Virus record (IMG/VR): IMGVR_UViG_2778261458_000004
Length of the DNA: 4,617 nucleotides
Source of the DNA: a virus
Taxonomy: Duplodnaviria; Heunggongvirae; Uroviricota; Caudoviricetes
Strand: one strand, 5' to 3'
Position numbers and translations under genes: made by a program. Position 1 is the stretch's first letter. Each line of letters starts with the position of its first letter. This document shows positions 1-4,617 of the stretch, one piece after another. The notes under the pieces were generated by a model that saw nothing but the letters and a program-made list of their open reading frames with translations, searched no databases and was not told the DNA's origin.

Positions 1-3000
1 TTATGATCATCGCTGATGGTGACTGTAACCGTCCCGTTTGGTGTTTCCGTGTTACCCCACGTACCAGCCTGTTTCGGGAATGATTTGGATACAGCTTTAA
101 CGAAGTCACCTCTGACCTGGTTCGCCTCCAGCATGCCCTTAATCGTACAGTTTTCATTTACCGTGACGTTGTTGAGCGTCCCGGAGTTCGCATTCACGTT
201 ACCGCTGATATCGGCATTTTTCGCCGTCAGCCGCCCGTCCGGTGTCAGGGAAAATACCGGAGGATTGCCGCCACTGGTAATGGTGGGAGCCGTCAGATAC
301 TTCAGGAACACTTCGTTCATGAATATCTGGTTGCCCTGCGCCACAAACATCGGCGTTTCATTCCCGTTTGCCGGGTCAATAAACGCGATACGGTTAGCGG
401 CAACCAGGAACTGGCTCAGTTTGCCTTCCTCCGTATCCTCCATGCTGAGGCCAAGCCCCGCGACATAATGCCTGCCGTCTTCGGTCTGCTCAATTTTGAC
501 GCCCCACATGGCATTCCATTTATCGTTGGCGTCCTTCCACTCTTTCGAAAACTCCTCCAGTTTGCTGGCGTTATCTTCCGTCAGCTCAAAGTTTTCCAGC
601 AGTTCCTTGCCGAGATGCGTTTTATTGATCAACCCTTTATAAAAATTCAGATAACCTTCCGCATCATCACTCGCCCGACCGACGGCCTCCACAAATGCCG
701 ATTTACCAACGGTATTCACGCTGCGGATATAAAAGTAATAATCATAACCCGGCTTAATATTGCTACTGGCAGCTATCCAGTACAGCGCCGTGCCAAGATA
801 ACGCGCGCTGGTTTCAATCTGCCTGATATCGATAATCCGCTTTTCCGAGAACCAGAACTCAAACTGCACCGTCGGGTCATAAACGGCAAGATGCGGCGTG
901 GCGGTTATCTGAAAATAGCCCGGCGTCAGCTCAATCCTCGACGGTGCTGCCGGTGCCGCAATCCGGAACGATACCGATGCCGGATCGCCCTGCTGCCCCC
1001 ACGCATTTACCGCCCGGACCGTCAGCGTGTAACGCCCCAGCGCCAGTTGCCTGAAGCGGTATGTGGTTTCCGTCGTCCGGGCCGTGCTGACCAGCAGCTC
1101 ACTGCCGTCGTCCGCTGTTACGGTCAGACGGAGCAGGAAGCTCACGCCCTTCACCACCTTCGGTGTGTCCCATCGCGCCAGCACCTGATATTCCCCGCTG
1201 TCTGCAGTGACTTCTGCGGCCAGGTGCTGCACCGCTGGCGGCGTGACACCATTCACCGTGCCACTCTGGTCGCCGTCAAAGTGCGCCCCGTTATCCACGA
1301 TGGCTTCTTTTTCCGGTACATGCTGCACGGCGGTGATGGCATACGTGCCGTCGTCGTTCTCACGGATACTCACGCAGCGGAACAGTCGCTGGCGCAGCGT
1401 CGGCAGCTTCAGCCCCCATACGCTGTATTCAGCAACACCGTCAGGAACACGGCTCACTTTTACCTTCACGCCGTCGGTGACGGACTGAACCTCCACGCTG
1501 ACCGGATTGCCACTTCCGTCAACCAGGCTTATCAGCGTGGTACCGGAGGATGGCAGCGTGATTTCACGGTCGAGCGTCAACGTCCGGGTCTGGCTGTTCA
1601 CCGCCAGCACGCGACCACCGATGCTGATACCGGCATAGTCATCATCACAGATTTCAATGACATCGCCCGGTACATGGCGAAGCCCTTCTGCGCCCACGCT
1701 GAAGTCCACGGTCTGTGTCTCCAGCAGCTCCGTTTTAATCAGCCACAGCCCGGCGCGGTGCGCCTGCCCCCGACTGGTACAGCCAAACGCATCCATCTTC
1801 GTGACGTTACGACCGTAACGGGCAATGGCCTGCGAGTCCTCCACAAGCTCTGTTGCCGTCTCCCAGCCGTTATCCGGGTCAATCCAGTTCACTTCAACGG
1901 CATTATGGCGGTCTTTCAGGGCGCTGAAGCTGTAGCGGAATGGCGCGCCATCATCCGGCATCACCACATTACTGCGGTTATAGGTCCACACCTTATCCGA
2001 CGGTCGGTCCTGCACGAACGTCAGCGTCTGCCCGTTCCATACCGGCATACAGCGCATCGCCGAGCAGAAATCACTGAGCACATCCCACGCCTTGCGCTGT
2101 GTGGTCAGCCAGGCATTACAGGTGATGCGCGGCTCCGTGCCACCAAAACCGTCCGGCACCGACTGGTCGCAATTCTGGCCGATGACATACAGCGCCCATT
2201 TGTCCACATCCGCCGCACCAAGACGTTTCCCCATGCCGTAGCGCGGGTGGGTCAGCATATCCCACAGACACCAGGCCATATTGTTGCTGTATGCTGGCTT
2301 AAACGTTCCGTCCCAGATACCGCTGTATTGCCGCGTCTGCGGGTTATAGTTCGACGGCACCTGCAGAATGCGCCCGCGAAGATGATAATTACGGCTCACC
2401 TGCTGGCTGCCGAACTGCTCCGAGTCCACCTGCACGCCGACCAGTGCCGTGTTCGGGTAGCACTGTTTCACATCGATGATTTCGGTGTATGACGACCAGA
2501 GCGTTTTGTTCTGCAGCTGGTCTGTGGTGCTGTCCGGCGTCATCCTGCGCATCCGGATATTAAACGGGCGCGGCGGCAGGTTACCCACCACCACCGAGGC
2601 CAGATACTGCGAGGTGGTTTTGCCTTTAATGGTGATGTCTTTTTCCGTCACCCAGCCACCGTTACGCTGTATCTGAACCAGCAGGCGGACTTCCGACGGA
2701 TTCCGGTCCCCCTTTGAGGTGGTTTCCACCAGTGCCTGCACACCGAAGGTAAAGCGCAGACGGTCGATGTTTGCAGACGTGATGGTCCGGGTAATCGGCG
2801 TGTCGTACTTCACTTCCGTACCCAGCACCGTCTCGGAGCCGGAGGATTCAAATCCCTCCGGCGGTGTCTGCTCCTGCTCACCTGCCCGGAAAACCACCGT
2901 GACACCGGAGATATTGGTATTCCCCTCACTGTCCAGCACTGGCGTACTGTTCAGCAGCACACTTTTTAATCCGTCCACCGGACCTTCAATCGGCCCTTCA

Positions 3001-3092
3001 CTGATGGCGTCTATCACGCTCAGCATCTGCGTGGACTTCAGGTTGTCCTTCGCTTCGCGCGGGGTATGCCCCTTACTGCTGCCTTTACCCAT
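1..3092 (-). CDS. J: Tail tip / central tail fibre protein, lambda gpJ-like (host specificity protein); 5' portion only, C-terminus lies beyond the left window edge
   Basis: Reverse complement of 3061..3092 reads ATG GGT AAA GGC AGC AGT AAG GGG CAT ACC CC = [11 protein letters not shown], which I recognise as the lambda gpJ N-terminus. The frame stays open from 3092 to the left edge (codons occupy 3..3092, about 1030 aa); translation at the left edge reads ...[10 protein letters not shown]. The ORF track does not list it, presumably because no stop lies inside the window. A GGAG Shine-Dalgarno sits 8 nt upstream of the ATG. Size and position after I match lambda J (1132 aa). Confidence 0.93.
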
Positions 3093-3104: not shown

Positions 3105-3114
3105 ATAAACGACA

Positions 3115-3134
3115 AAACCGCCCGCAGGCGGTTT
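3115..3134 (-). terminator. Perfect 8-bp stem / 4-nt loop hairpin in the I-J intergenic spacer, followed on the minus-strand transcript by a U-rich tract (possible intrinsic terminator or RNA-stability element)
   Basis: Plus strand 3115..3134 = AAACCGCC-CGCA-GGCGGTTT, arms perfectly complementary. On the minus-strand transcript: AAACCGCC UGCG GGCGGUUU followed by UGUCGUUUAU, then GGAG and the J start. Seen directly in sequence; function not established. Confidence 0.3.
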
Positions 3135-3152
3135 CACATAAAATATTTTGCA

Positions 3153-3824
3153 TCATCGACCAATCACCACAACCTGACCACCGTCCCCTTCATCTGCCGT
3201 GCTGATCTCCTGAGATACCACACGTGACCCCACGCGCATTTCACCATACAGAACAGGCATAACATTGCCCTGGGCAACCATGTTATCCAGTGAGGAGAAA
3301 TAGGTGTTCTGCTTACCGTTATCCGTTGTCTGTGTGCGGGGAGTTCTGGCTTTCGGTGCCAGCATCTGAGCCACACCGCCGAGCACCATACTGGCACCGA
3401 GAGAAAACAGAATGCCGGTCATACCACCGGCACCAATGGCAGCCCCCCATGCTGCAAGGGTGGCTCCGGCGGTAAAGAATGATCCGGCAATGGCGGCTGC
3501 TCCCAGGACAATCTGGAATACACCACCTGACTTGGCCCCGGCGACTCTGGGAACAATATGAATCACAGCGCCGTCAGGCAGAGCCTCATGTAACTGCGCC
3601 GTTAATCCGGACGTGCTGACATCCTGCCCGGCAATACGCACCTGATACCAGCCGTCGCTCAGTTTCTGACGAAACGCAGGGAGCTGTGTGGCCAGCGCCC
3701 GGATGGCTTCGGCCCCCGTTTTCACACGAAGGTCGATGCGGCGGCCAAATCGTTGCAAATCCCCGTAAAGGCAGATGCGTGCCATGCCCGGTGACGCCAG
3801 AGGGAGTGTGTGCGTCGCTGCCAT
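3153..3824 (-). CDS. I: Tail tip assembly protein I (lambda gpI-like), 223 aa
   Basis: Track ORF of 223 aa (MAATHTLPLASPGMARICLYGDLQRF...GQVVVIGR), the same length as lambda gpI and recognisably the same sequence, in the expected position between K and J. The start overlaps the 3' end of K by 103 nt. A possible SD (GAGG, plus-strand 3836..3839) lies about 11 nt upstream. The C-terminal half carries a Gly/Ala-rich hydrophobic segment. Confidence 0.92.
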   Translation of the reverse strand: MAATHTLPLASPGMARICLYGDLQRFGRRIDLRVKTGAEAIRALATQLPAFRQKLSDGWYQVRIAGQDVSTSGLTAQLHEALPDGAVIHIVPRVAGAKSGGVFQIVLGAAAIAGSFFTAGATLAAWGAAIGAGGMTGILFSLGASMVLGGVAQMLAPKARTPRTQTTDNGKQNTYFSSLDNMVAQGNVMPVLYGEMRVGSRVVSQEISTADEGDGGQVVVIGR

Positions 3825-4465
3825 TTGTCGGTATACCTCTCTCGTTTGCTCAGTTGTTCAGGAATATGGTGCAGCAGCTCGCCATCACCACAGTAAATAG
3901 CGGCATGATTCGGCACCGATGAACCAAAGCAGCACAGCAGCACATCGCCCGGCTGCGCCGCTGACAACGGCACCTGATACAGCCCCGTTGCCTCCAGATT
4001 ATCCAGATAGAGATTCTGACCGTGACGCCACCAGTCATCCTCCCGTGTAAAATCCGGCATCTCAATCCCCGCCAGATGGTAAGCGTCCCGGAACAGCGTG
4101 TAACAGTCCGTCACCCCGTGCTCAAAGCGCCGCCCGGTGAGATGCGGCACACAGCGGAACTTGTGAATCGCCCCCCGGCAGACCAGCCACCACGGCAAAT
4201 CACTCTGCACCTGCAGCCGCCTGTCGGCCTCACTCAGCCAGGGCAGACCACCGGGGTGACTGTGGACCAGCGCCACAATCTCACCGTGCATCTCTGCCCG
4301 CAGCCAGTCCTCCGGCGACATACGGAAATAATCTTCCGGCTCACCGGAGATATTCACGCAGGGGAAATATCTTTCCCCCTCCGGCGTTCTCACCACGAAG
4401 CCGCACGACTCCGCTGGCACACATCGCCGGGCGTGCGCCAGAATCGCTGATTCTGTCTCTGTCAT
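3722..4465 (-). CDS. K: Tail tip assembly protein K (lambda gpK-like); JAMM/MPN metalloprotease-like domain plus NlpC/P60-like domain; 247 aa from the first ATG, or 199 aa if translation starts at the internal ATG at 4319..4321
   Basis: Track ORF of 247 aa (MTETESAILAHARRC...) whose ATG (4463..4465) lies 5 nt after the L stop. It contains a perfect JAMM signature H-x-H-x7-S-x2-D (HSHPGGLPWLSEAD, residues 68-81, nt 4223..4264) and a downstream Cys/His pair (C121 in GVTDCYTLF; H187, H199, H200) consistent with an NlpC/P60-type fold. Recognised as lambda K. The internal Met49 would give the 199-aa product that, as I recall it, matches the lambda reference annotation. Confidence 0.92.
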   Translation of the reverse strand: MTETESAILAHARRCVPAESCGFVVRTPEGERYFPCVNISGEPEDYFRMSPEDWLRAEMHGEIVALVHSHPGGLPWLSEADRRLQVQSDLPWWLVCRGAIHKFRCVPHLTGRRFEHGVTDCYTLFRDAYHLAGIEMPDFTREDDWWRHGQNLYLDNLEATGLYQVPLSAAQPGDVLLCCFGSSVPNHAAIYCGDGELLHHIPEQLSKRERYTDKWQRRTHSLWRHRAWHASAFTGICNDLAAASTFV

Positions 4466-4470
4466 GGGAT

Positions 4471-4617
4471 TTACTGCGAAAGTTTGTTAATGGAAAGGAA
4501 GCCGCCAAAGTTGCCGACGTTATTGCGGAACTTACAACCGCTCAGGCATTTGCTGCATTTATCCTTCGTGATATCGGACGTTGGCTGGTCATATTCATCC
4601 GCGACCGCCGGACCGTG
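4471..4617 (-). CDS. L: Tail tip protein L (lambda gpL-like), C-terminal 48 codons plus stop; N-terminus lies beyond the right window edge
   Basis: Reverse complement of 4471..4617 translates in frame to HGPAVADEYDQPTSDITKDKCSKCLSGCKFRNNVGNFGGFLSINKLSQ*, with stop TAA at 4471..4473. I recognise this as the gpL C-terminus, including the cysteine cluster CxxCxxxC. It sits immediately upstream of K, as in lambda. Confidence 0.9.
   Translation of the reverse strand, partial: HGPAVADEYDQPTSDITKDKCSKCLSGCKFRNNVGNFGGFLSINKLSQ

Follow-up and report, generated by a model that had tools for sequence, protein, structure and literature searches.

Gene layout at the locus

The window, by which we mean the whole 4,617-nucleotide stretch of viral DNA that was analysed (IMG/VR record IMGVR_UViG_2778261458_000004), is filled by the tail-tip block of a lambdoid phage in the order L'–K–I–J', all on the minus strand. 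It is about 95% identical to lambda, 434 and ev207. The genes, and the overlap between K and I, are as follows.

4471..4617, minus strand: 3' end of gene L, tail-tip protein L with its Cys-rich C-terminus (translation, annotation of related records)
3722..4465, minus strand: gene K, tail-tip assembly protein K, 247 aa in its full-length form (ORF, Pfam, phrog_30 minor tail protein)
3153..3824, minus strand: gene I, tail-tip assembly/plug protein I, 223 aa (ORF, near-identity to lambda gpI, phrog_32)
3722..3824, minus strand: overlap of the K 3' end and the I 5' end, 103 nt (coordinates; I lies in the -1 frame of K)
1..3092, minus strand: 5' part of gene J, central tail fibre/tip attachment protein, running out of the window (annotation of related records, ATG context)

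The reading frames that a first-pass annotation of this DNA had given for K (4465..3722) and I (3824..3153) agree with the ORF coordinates. The stop codon of L lies 5 nt ahead of the K ATG. K is 94-98% identical to the K proteins of lambdoid phages, and our data support a product of 247 aa as against the 199 aa counted from Met49 in lambda-type records; a practical by-product of this work is thus that K should be annotated at 247 rather than 199 aa. Programmed -1 frameshifting to make a K-I fusion was considered and rejected, as no slippery heptamer is present in the K/I overlap, and the K-I fusions found in databases, which are singletons with heterogeneous junctions, also count against it.

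The gene order is widely kept. L-K-I-J was found in all 15 distant phages whose annotated regions were examined (14 chosen from matches to K and one from a match to I), from Mannheimia to Synechococcus and Rhizobium. K occurs in 1,761 phage records and I in 1,712, with matching counts per genus, and among the deposited phage genomes that were searched, around 3.5% carry the pair. One candidate for a natural I without its N-terminal domain beside a K without its JAB domain, Acba_15, was rejected since both domains are present.

K combines a JAMM domain with an NlpC/P60 domain

4172..4456, minus strand: JAMM/MPN+ (Prok-JAB) metallopeptidase domain, K residues 4-98 (PF14464, structural model, Foldseek)
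4409..4411, minus strand: E19, upstream JAMM catalytic Glu (present in 102 of 105 diverse homologs; matched to the Glu of 2kks in alignment)
4223..4264, minus strand: JAMM zinc-binding signature H68-S-H70-x7-S78-x2-D81 (sequence; aligns with HSHP...S..D of 2kks)
3794..4135, minus strand: NlpC/P60 papain-like domain, K residues 111-224 (PF00877, full profile coverage)
4103-4105, minus strand: C121 of the NlpC/P60 domain, 96% conserved in 105 diverse homologs
3905-3907, minus strand: H187 of the NlpC/P60 domain, 98% conserved in the same homologs
3869-3871, minus strand: H199 of the NlpC/P60 domain, 98% conserved in the same homologs

The first-pass annotation had read K as a JAMM/MPN protein that also carries an NlpC/P60 peptidase domain, and profile searches returned both. 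Prok-JAB (PF14464) matches residues 4-98 with an E value of 2.4e-13 (50.4 bits, Pfam cut-off 25), and NLPC_P60 (PF00877) matches over profile positions 1-105 of 105, likewise with an E value of 2.4e-13 (50.4 bits, Pfam cut-off 23); each is far beyond chance. The motif E-x(n)-H-[S/T]-H-x7-S-x2-D is complete in K (E19, H68-S69-H70, S78 and D81), and counting H68, H70 and D81 on the nucleotide sequence places them within nt 4223..4264, as first read. In a sample of 105 diverse representatives taken from 2,774 clusters of K homologs, the signature is conserved at H68 (98%), H70 (97%), S78 (91%, with a further 7% Thr) and D81 (97%). The motif residues also align with those of 2kks.

Structural comparison points the same way. 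In a model built on a natural K-I fusion that is about 93% identical in K, the JAB region is predicted well (pLDDT of around 90), the remainder being of lower quality (NlpC/P60 pLDDT 55-80, I N-domain region 50-66, pTM 0.41). The best Foldseek match of the K N-domain is PfJAMM1 with its ubiquitin-like (Ubl) substrate SAMP2 (5lda), and 2kks, Rpn11, CSN5 and AMSH are further matches; the probability for the MPN fold is 1.00 against 5lda, 5ld9, Rpn11, CSN5 and AMSH.

For the NlpC/P60 domain, profile and conservation agree with the Cys/His set proposed earlier, with C121 at 4105..4103. C121 stands in a D-C-[Y/F/W] context and H187 in N-H-[A/G/S]; in an alignment with the mycobacterial NlpC/P60 endopeptidase 8idc_E, both H187 and H199 are matched to His residues. 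Because the Cys-His-His triad is intact, the domain is, judging by sequence, probably catalytic as well. In the 105 representatives, 22 positions of K are at least 90% conserved, and these include the catalytic residues of its two domains.

I has a predicted ubiquitin-like domain, a glycine junction and a plug

3534..3785, minus strand: predicted MoaD/SAMP-type beta-grasp Ubl domain, I residues 14-97 (PF06805, AF2, Foldseek)
3513..3539, minus strand: junction G-A-K-S-G-G-V-F-Q, I residues 96-104, presumed region of cleavage by K (112 homologs)
3354..3521, minus strand: uncharged Gly/Ala-rich hydrophobic linker and helices, I residues 102-157 (composition)
3156..3425, minus strand: C-terminal plug domain, I residues 134-223 (lambda tail-tip cryo-EM; kept in the virion)

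I aligns with lambda gpI (chain 8iyk_I) over residues 1-223 with an E value of 9.8e-140, and differs from it at 4 of 223 positions. Residues 14-97 match the Lambda_tail_I profile (PF06805; E 1.2e-27, 96.6 bits, Pfam cut-off 23.8). The AF2 model of this region has the secondary structure order beta-beta-alpha-beta-helix-beta, which fits a beta-grasp at a modest pLDDT of 58-69. When this model, with its pLDDT of only 58-69, was searched against the PDB with Foldseek, all of the top 50 matches were Ubls, with SAMP1 (E 2.9e-4), MoaD (TM 0.76, rmsd 2.8 A), CysO and Urm1 ranking best and SUMO and ubiquitin after them. The MoaD_arch profile gave a weak match to I (E 0.055, 14 bits, under the cut-off of 49.5), and a profile of 15 I N-domain sequences found no Ubl among PDB sequences. 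It is therefore the fold search and the literature that carry the Ubl assignment; in the latter, Iyer et al. (PMC1779556) linked the I N-domain to the Ubl family by PSI-BLAST (e = 1e-3). On these two grounds the ubiquitin-like beta-grasp proposed in the first-pass annotation appears sound, as far as the predicted model can support it.

I reads VPRVAGAKSGG at residues 91-101, as had been noted, but only G101 of the Gly pair there is invariant, G100 being Gly in 69% of 112 I homologs. Across these homologs both G96 and G101 are invariant, K98 and Q104 are each conserved in 96% and F103 in 85%; the two invariant glycines are internal to the polypeptide rather than C-terminal. G96 aligns with the C-terminal Gly-Gly of MoaD. 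The junction motif, which is conserved on both sides, is also present in 14 distant phages, and it offers two candidate cleavage sites.

Downstream of the junction, none of the 56 residues from 102 to 157 is charged, 14 are Ala and 11 are Gly, and Kyte-Doolittle hydropathy reaches 1.78 (averages over 19 residues). A hydrophobic Gly/Ala-rich segment had indeed been described here, but as a tail, whereas it is a linker that leads into a conserved C-terminal domain (residues ~134-223). The spacing between G101 and G143 varies from about 25 to 44 residues among homologs. Cryo-EM of the lambda tail tip resolved only residues 134/135-223 of gpI (PMC10721106, PMC12617516), and PDB entry 9e7m covers residues 133-222.

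Evidence for the proposed processing of I by K

Processing of I by K was predicted by Iyer, Burroughs and Aravind in 2006 (PMC1779556), so the first-pass annotation was right to call the pair a described prediction and not a new system. According to a conference report of 2025 (PMC12908700), the Davidson lab has shown that gpK cleaves the Ubl from gpI after gpI has joined the tip complex; our literature searches for a full paper or preprint with K-I cleavage data gave this conference summary only. In lambda virions gpK is absent by both mass spectrometry and cryo-EM (PMC10721106, PMC12617516), and the single gpI peptide recovered by mass spectrometry (9.87% coverage) is exactly the C-terminal tryptic peptide 202-223.

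A parallel set of observations comes from a preprint on the F-pyocin of Pseudomonas aeruginosa. There, mass spectrometry detected the N-terminal region of PA0640, the I homolog, in stalled tips and found it gone from mature particles, and the K homolog PA0639 was essential for tips and missing from particles. PA0640 expressed by itself lost its N-domain to host proteases, and the authors did not name the maturation protease. Collectively, the 2006 prediction, the virion data, the F-pyocin preprint and the conference report support the proposal that, during tip assembly, I is processed by its partner K. The remark that its biochemistry is poorly resolved is becoming outdated in view of the conference report and the preprint.

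A model for tail-tip maturation

We consider it likely, with a probability of roughly 0.8, that K and I are a lambda-type tail-tip maturation pair in which the JAMM site of K cuts the Ubl off I. I would be made as a three-part precursor consisting of the Ubl domain, the Gly junction with its uncharged Gly/Ala-rich segment, and the C-terminal plug. Three copies of the plug would come together inside the J-L tip lumen and grip the C-terminus of the tape measure protein; such a trimer and its tape measure contact have been seen by cryo-EM in the nearly identical lambda gpI. K would be a non-structural enzyme whose JAMM site (E19, H68, H70, S78, D81 and Zn2+) acts on a linear fusion in the manner of a deubiquitinase. 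The cut would fall where the Ubl tail ends, the bond following the invariant G101 (x-[G/A]-G|[L/V/M]-F-Q) being the probable site and G96-A97 the alternative, and it would be made only once I is incorporated in the tip complex. After cleavage the Ubl and K would depart, leaving neither in the virion. Most likely, the very hydrophobic segment stays soluble thanks to the Ubl, which also prevents early docking of the tape measure and tube, in which case its removal would serve as an assembly checkpoint.

Alternative explanations

An extended role for K is possible but doubtful: the NlpC/P60 domain would carry out a second maturation cleavage, for which gpH -> gpH* is the best candidate, and the JAMM domain might in addition strip a Bil-type Ubl from J. 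Processing of the tape measure from gpH to gpH* has been described with no protease assigned to it (PMC12617516).

It is unlikely that the JAMM domain serves mainly in counter-defence, as a deubiquitinase that strips a Bil-type Ubl from J, with the adjacency of I being incidental. Bil conjugates its Ubl to a J homolog, and Hor, Wolf and Sorek (10.1101/2023.09.04.556158) speculate that the DUB domains of siphophage tail-assembly proteins act in this way; J also lies two genes downstream of K. Against this, K and I co-occur almost one-to-one in about 1,700 phage records, I bears a Ubl of its own with an invariant Gly junction, and the K homolog PA0639 is required for any tip to form. Lambda genetics likewise counts against it, since K is required for tail assembly in ordinary hosts. 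Compared with defence-system proteins in PADLOC, neither K nor I showed any similarity, which for K argues further against a main role in counter-defence. Counter-defence could remain a secondary activity of K.

A non-catalytic K is less likely again. K would then be a pseudo-enzyme that serves as an assembly chaperone, and host proteases would remove the N-domain of I, or that domain would simply be disordered in the virion. Removal of the PA0640 N-domain by E. coli proteases on lone expression fits this explanation, and cryo-EM cannot tell a disordered domain from an absent one. Mass spectrometry nevertheless places the N-domain as truly missing from mature F-pyocin, and that of lambda virions gave a C-terminal gpI peptide only. 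Pseudo-enzymes typically lose their catalytic residues, whereas the zinc ligands, the catalytic Glu and the Cys-His-His set of K are 91-98% conserved across highly divergent homologs. The conference report (PMC12908700) moreover names gpK as the cleaver.

We regard as improbable, slightly more so than a non-catalytic K, that K uses its NlpC/P60 domain to hydrolyse peptidoglycan, either in association with the virion or at the time of infection, and that its JAB domain and the Ubl of I have nothing to do with each other. NlpC/P60 is typically a family of cell-wall endopeptidases, PGAP names K a 'C40 family peptidase', and NCBIfam models for phage cell-wall peptidase and RipB/RipC match K. These matches are weak, however, and every one of them is far under its cut-off. 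K is undetected in lambda virions by mass spectrometry and cryo-EM as well as in F-pyocin particles, lambda virions are described as holding no such enzyme (PMC12617516), and a hydrolase would leave the conserved JAMM site and the Ubl unexplained.

The first-pass annotation had also suggested conjugation of I; although a MoaD/SAMP-like fold with conserved Gly residues, together with the conjugation of SAMPs in archaea, would suit an I Ubl that is activated and attached to a target such as J with K as the deconjugase, this is very improbable, as the Gly residues are internal with ~120 further residues of I after them, the Ubl is lost from the particle after cleavage, and conjugation is not supported because the module lacks E1 and E2, no E1/ThiF-like or E2 gene being present in the window (L', K, I, J') or in any of the 15 related L-K-I-J loci.

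Comparison with known systems

The K-I pair described here is already known. The genes are the same as lambda gpK/gpI (TAPK/TAPI of Iyer, Burroughs and Aravind 2006), with K 94-98% and I 97-99% identical to lambdoid homologs and with the same L-K-I-J order, K/I overlap and domain architecture (PMC1779556). The differences from lambda are allelic only, those to gpI in the PDB being R67Q, T82A, I164T and L189M. Given the 2006 prediction and the recent experimental report, which is described as confirming it, the K-I finding is correct but not new. The pair is among the clearest viral or prokaryotic cases of a Ubl domain matched with an enzyme of the JAMM deubiquitinase type, and, on the proposed model, it would be a proteolytic checkpoint in the assembly of both lambda-type tails and F-type tailocins.

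The archaeal JAMM1/SAMP systems (HvJAMM1; PfJAMM1-SAMP2, 5lda) provide the closest structures for the N-domains of K (PfJAMM1) and I (SAMP1), and in them, as is proposed for the phage pair, a JAMM metalloprotease works on the Gly tail that ends a MoaD-type beta-grasp. SAMPs, however, are free proteins that are conjugated via an E1 (UbaA), and JAMM1 takes off conjugates that are either isopeptide-linked or linear, whereas phage I is translated with the Ubl and its 'substrate' as one polypeptide, no E1 is present, and K has the extra NlpC/P60 domain. In Mec+/CysO and QbsD/QbsE a JAMM peptidase gene also stands beside a MoaD/ThiS-like protein and the enzyme trims residues after Gly-Gly; CysO (3dwg_C) is among the fold matches of I, and the phage JAB has been placed in the same clade (PMC1779556). 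Those systems bare a C-terminal Gly-Gly for thiocarboxylate chemistry, whereas the phage retains the C-terminal fragment.

F-pyocin PA0639/PA0640 are K and I homologs in a phage-tail-derived bacteriocin from whose plug the N-terminal region is removed, and PDB chain 25vf_9 matches I residues 11 to 209; this system differs in being a tailocin rather than a phage and in its low sequence identity. Finally, the gpI C-domain has a counterpart in the plug domain of pb3, the baseplate hub of phage T5, which sits at the same place in the tip lumen and likewise serves as a tripod plug (PMC10721106), but the T5 plug is an insertion in the hub protein, with neither a Ubl pro-domain nor a K-like peptidase.

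Gene layout of the tail-tip block

The window (4,617 bases) is a lambdoid phage tail-tip block on the minus strand. Perceval, ev207, 434 and lambda derivatives match it at 94-95% DNA identity across its full length, and L, K, I and J are annotated at corresponding positions in their records.

4617..4471, minus, L, 3′ end (translation)
4465..3722, minus, K, 247 aa (ORF)
3824..3153, minus, I, 223 aa (ORF)
ATG at 3092, minus, J, first ~1,030 codons, continuing beyond the window

The readable C-terminal 48 residues of gpL (4471-4617, minus) include the Cys-rich stretch …KCSKCLSGCKF…, part of the iron-sulfur cluster domain known from the structure of the lambda tail tip. In lambda-type GenBank records K begins at Met49 and is 199 aa long. 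Codons 1-48 occupy window 4322-4465 (1651-1794 in the related locus L001), and this upstream ORF is in frame and open in lambda also. Several of the positions most conserved in the family fall within residues 1-48, namely E19 (the JAMM catalytic Glu), C21, G22, N38 and F47, and in each of 15 distant phages K begins directly after L and its JAB domain is complete; judged from these sequences, the correct length should be 247 aa. Because the K ATG (4465) lies 5 nt past the L stop codon and lacks a Shine-Dalgarno sequence, translational coupling to L is suggested.

Genes K and I share 103 nt (3722-3824), with the I frame at −1 relative to K. K-I ‘fusion’ proteins are numerous in public databases, and the PHROG profiles phrog_28576 and phrog_35166 cover K plus I. 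Programmed frameshifting was rejected as their origin: the overlap contains no slippery heptamer, the junctions vary between entries and the entries are singletons, which look like indels or decaying prophages. Lambda-type K extends ~23 residues past NlpC/P60 (residues 225-247, window 3722-3793, F-x-G-I-x-N-D-[L/I]-A). This extension, which could be a docking peptide, is kept in a Mannheimia phage with non-overlapping K and I genes and is missing from T1-like K.

The stretch separating the I stop (3153-3155) from the J ATG (3092) contains a GC-rich hairpin, GAAACCGCC-UGCG-GGCGGUUUU, and then a U-rich tract (3114-3135, minus); together they resemble an intrinsic terminator directly preceding J. 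The 76-nt intergenic stretch holding it has an MFE of −22.7 kcal/mol (z −1.9), and a consensus terminator scan gave no flag at the hairpin. The T1 and Skenny records have terminators annotated between I and J, and one phage 434 record lists a terminator among the features under the match.

Domains and active sites of K

The first-pass annotation had located a JAMM signature and an NlpC/P60 cysteine in K, and both were borne out to the nucleotide when counted from the K start (H68-S69-H70 … S78-E-A-D81 at nt 4264..4223; C121 at nt 4105..4103). Both domains score above their Pfam cut-offs, with Prok-JAB at residues 4-98 (E 2.4e-13, 50.4 bits, cut-off 25) and a complete NlpC/P60 at residues 111-224 (E 2.4e-13, 50.4 bits, cut-off 23). 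The JAMM motif is complete when the upstream E19 is counted in, and each of E19, H68, H70, S78 and D81 is matched by its counterpart in the alignment with 2kks, a JAB protein of solved structure.

The K family comprises 2,774 clusters among the 1.84 billion cluster representatives searched. We aligned 105 full-length representatives, each <65% identical to the window K, and found only 22 positions conserved in at least 90%. All proposed catalytic residues are among them: E19 (97%), H68 (98%), H70 (97%), S78 (91%, plus 7% Thr), D81 (97%), C121 (96%), H187 (98%) and H199 (98%). A natural K-I fusion, with a K part ~93% identical to ours, was modelled with AlphaFold2; the model is weak on its I side, and its JAB domain has pLDDT ~90. 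The best PDB fold matches of this domain are all active JAMM isopeptidases, headed by Pyrococcus JAMM1 solved with its ubiquitin-like (Ubl) substrate SAMP2, then Rpn11, CSN5, AMSH and BRCC36. Since the catalytic residues are conserved and the modelled JAB domain folds like active JAMM isopeptidases, both K domains appear to be functional enzymes and not pseudo-enzymes; the same conservation contradicts a role for K as a non-catalytic chaperone.

The ubiquitin-like domain and junction of I

I matches the Pfam family Lambda_tail_I at residues 14-97 (E 1.2e-27). Sequence evidence for a Ubl is weak: the MoaD_arch match (E 0.055) does not reach its cut-off, and a profile built from 15 N-domain sequences found only gpI homologs among PDB sequences. 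The window I was also modelled from a 112-sequence alignment including homologs of 30-39% identity. Its Ubl region has a pLDDT of only 58-69, with a strand and helix order that fits a beta-grasp. Every one of its best 50 fold matches in the PDB is a beta-grasp Ubl; SAMP1 (E 2.9e-4), MoaD (TM 0.76, 2.8 Å), CysO and Urm1 come first, ahead of SUMO, ubiquitin and NEDD8. The model and fold search support the anticipated beta-grasp with moderate confidence, in agreement with the PSI-BLAST link of Iyer et al. (PMC1779556). Two recent PDB entries found with the window I, 9l9p_A (the phage T1 I protein) and 25vf_9 (a 200-aa I homolog), are not among the fold matches of the modelled Ubl, which would fit if, as in lambda, only their C-terminal parts are resolved.

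The sequence …VPRVAGAKSGG noted earlier is present at residues 91-101. The Ubl ends in P-x-x-x-G-[S/A/N] (P92…G96-A97), which lines up with the P-P-V-x-G-G found at the MoaD C-terminus, and continues as K-x-[G/A]-G-[L/V/M]-F-Q-x-[I/V]-L-G. P92, G96, G101 and G108 are invariant and K98 and Q104 are 96% conserved (n = 112 homologs). Hence the double glycine held only for G101; G100 is Gly in only 69% of the 112, and the other invariant Gly lies five residues before G101. Likewise, residues 102-157 do form a Gly/Ala-rich segment (56 residues, no charged side chain, 14 Ala, 11 Gly) but not a tail, as a C-terminal domain follows. The G101-G143 distance ranges from ~25 to 44 residues between homologs, and after this spacer a conserved G-x-S-M-x-L-G-G-V-x-Q-M-L-[S/A]-P leads into that domain. 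The I homolog of Acinetobacter phage Acba_15 (locus L016, 3557-4228) has a ~25-30-residue insertion within the Ubl and a junction reading G-A-G-G-G-G-G-L-Q; the spacing of the two invariant glycines can therefore vary. Judged by these alignments, strong purifying selection on both K catalytic sites and the I junction is shown.

Gene order and co-occurrence

We compared 15 distant phages, 14 chosen from K matches and one (Acba_15) from an I match, including Mannheimia, Stenotrophomonas, Moraxella, Burkholderia, Klebsiella, Pseudomonas, Synechococcus, Rhizobium, T1, Cronobacter and Acinetobacter phages. The order L-K-I-J is kept in 15/15. Among 50,697 phage records searched by tblastn, 1,761 have K and 1,712 have I, with near-matching K/I counts per genus (Escherichia 612/606, Klebsiella 454/444, Ralstonia 60/60, Pseudomonas 56/56, Burkholderia 39/39, Shigella 40/40), a pattern that an obligate enzyme-substrate pair would show. 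The domain and motif matches in K and I themselves are far beyond chance and confirm the first observation.

Proposed model for Ubl removal by K

We propose, with a probability of about 80%, that K removes the Ubl from I within the tip complex and leaves the plug. The C-domain of I has been shown to act as a structural plug in the near-identical lambda protein: cryo-EM resolves gpI only at residues 134/135-223, which form a trimer in the lumen of the tip, bound to gpJ through beta-augmentation and retaining the C-terminal end of the tape measure gpH (PMC10721106; PMC12617516). K is shown not to be part of the virion, as neither mass spectrometry nor the maps contain gpK (PMC10721106; PMC12617516), which contradicts a virion peptidoglycan hydrolase. 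In the virion mass-spectrometry table gpI is represented by a single peptide, whose 9.87% coverage corresponds exactly to the 22-residue C-terminal tryptic peptide 202-223, and none of the well-behaved Ubl peptides appears; this is only suggestive of a missing Ubl.

K would cut after I has entered the complex, as reported elsewhere. Until then the Ubl may keep the uncharged segment soluble and sterically delay docking of the tape measure and tube. The scissile bond probably follows G101, since x-[G/A]-G suits the P2-P1 pocket of a JAMM enzyme better than G-[S/A/N] does; G96-A97, the position equivalent to the MoaD end, is the other candidate.

A counter-defence role for the JAB domain against Bil, which attaches a Ubl to a J homolog, is a speculation of the Bil preprint (10.1101/2023.09.04.556158). 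It is very unlikely to be the main function, given that K and I pair nearly one-to-one, that K is required in tip assembly and that K shows no similarity to defence-system models (PADLOC); an additional anti-Bil or gpH-processing activity is possible. True conjugation of the Ubl to a target, the other option in the first-pass annotation, is contradicted by the glycine being internal to the I polypeptide and by a module with no E1 or E2 in the window and 15 loci examined.

Comparison with known systems

[quoted passage not shown] The gpK homolog PA0639 is needed for tip formation and absent from particles, and the authors describe a ‘proteolytic checkpoint’ to which they assign no protease (10.64898/2026.02.24.707460). 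An October 2025 meeting report states that the Davidson lab, from structure prediction, biochemistry and phage mutants, finds that gpK cuts the Ubl from the gpI structural domain only once gpI is engaged with other tip proteins, so that assembly order is enforced (PMC12908700); our literature search found no full paper or preprint carrying these data. The processing pair first suggested from the sequence was accurate and well interpreted, and was correctly called a described prediction. The cleavage site, the NlpC/P60 substrate and anti-Bil or gpH processing are questions for the whole K-I family rather than the window specifically. In TAPI (I), Iyer, Burroughs and Aravind (2006) recognised a Ubl resembling MoaD/ThiS, whose C-terminal Gly is conserved, followed by a Gly-rich linker and a C-terminal domain, and in TAPK (K) they recognised JAB plus NlpC/P60; they predicted that JAB frees the Ubl by a cut at its last Gly (PMC1779556). 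The K-I pair is hence already known, through the classical lambda K and I genes, the 2006 prediction and a mechanism since reported experimentally.
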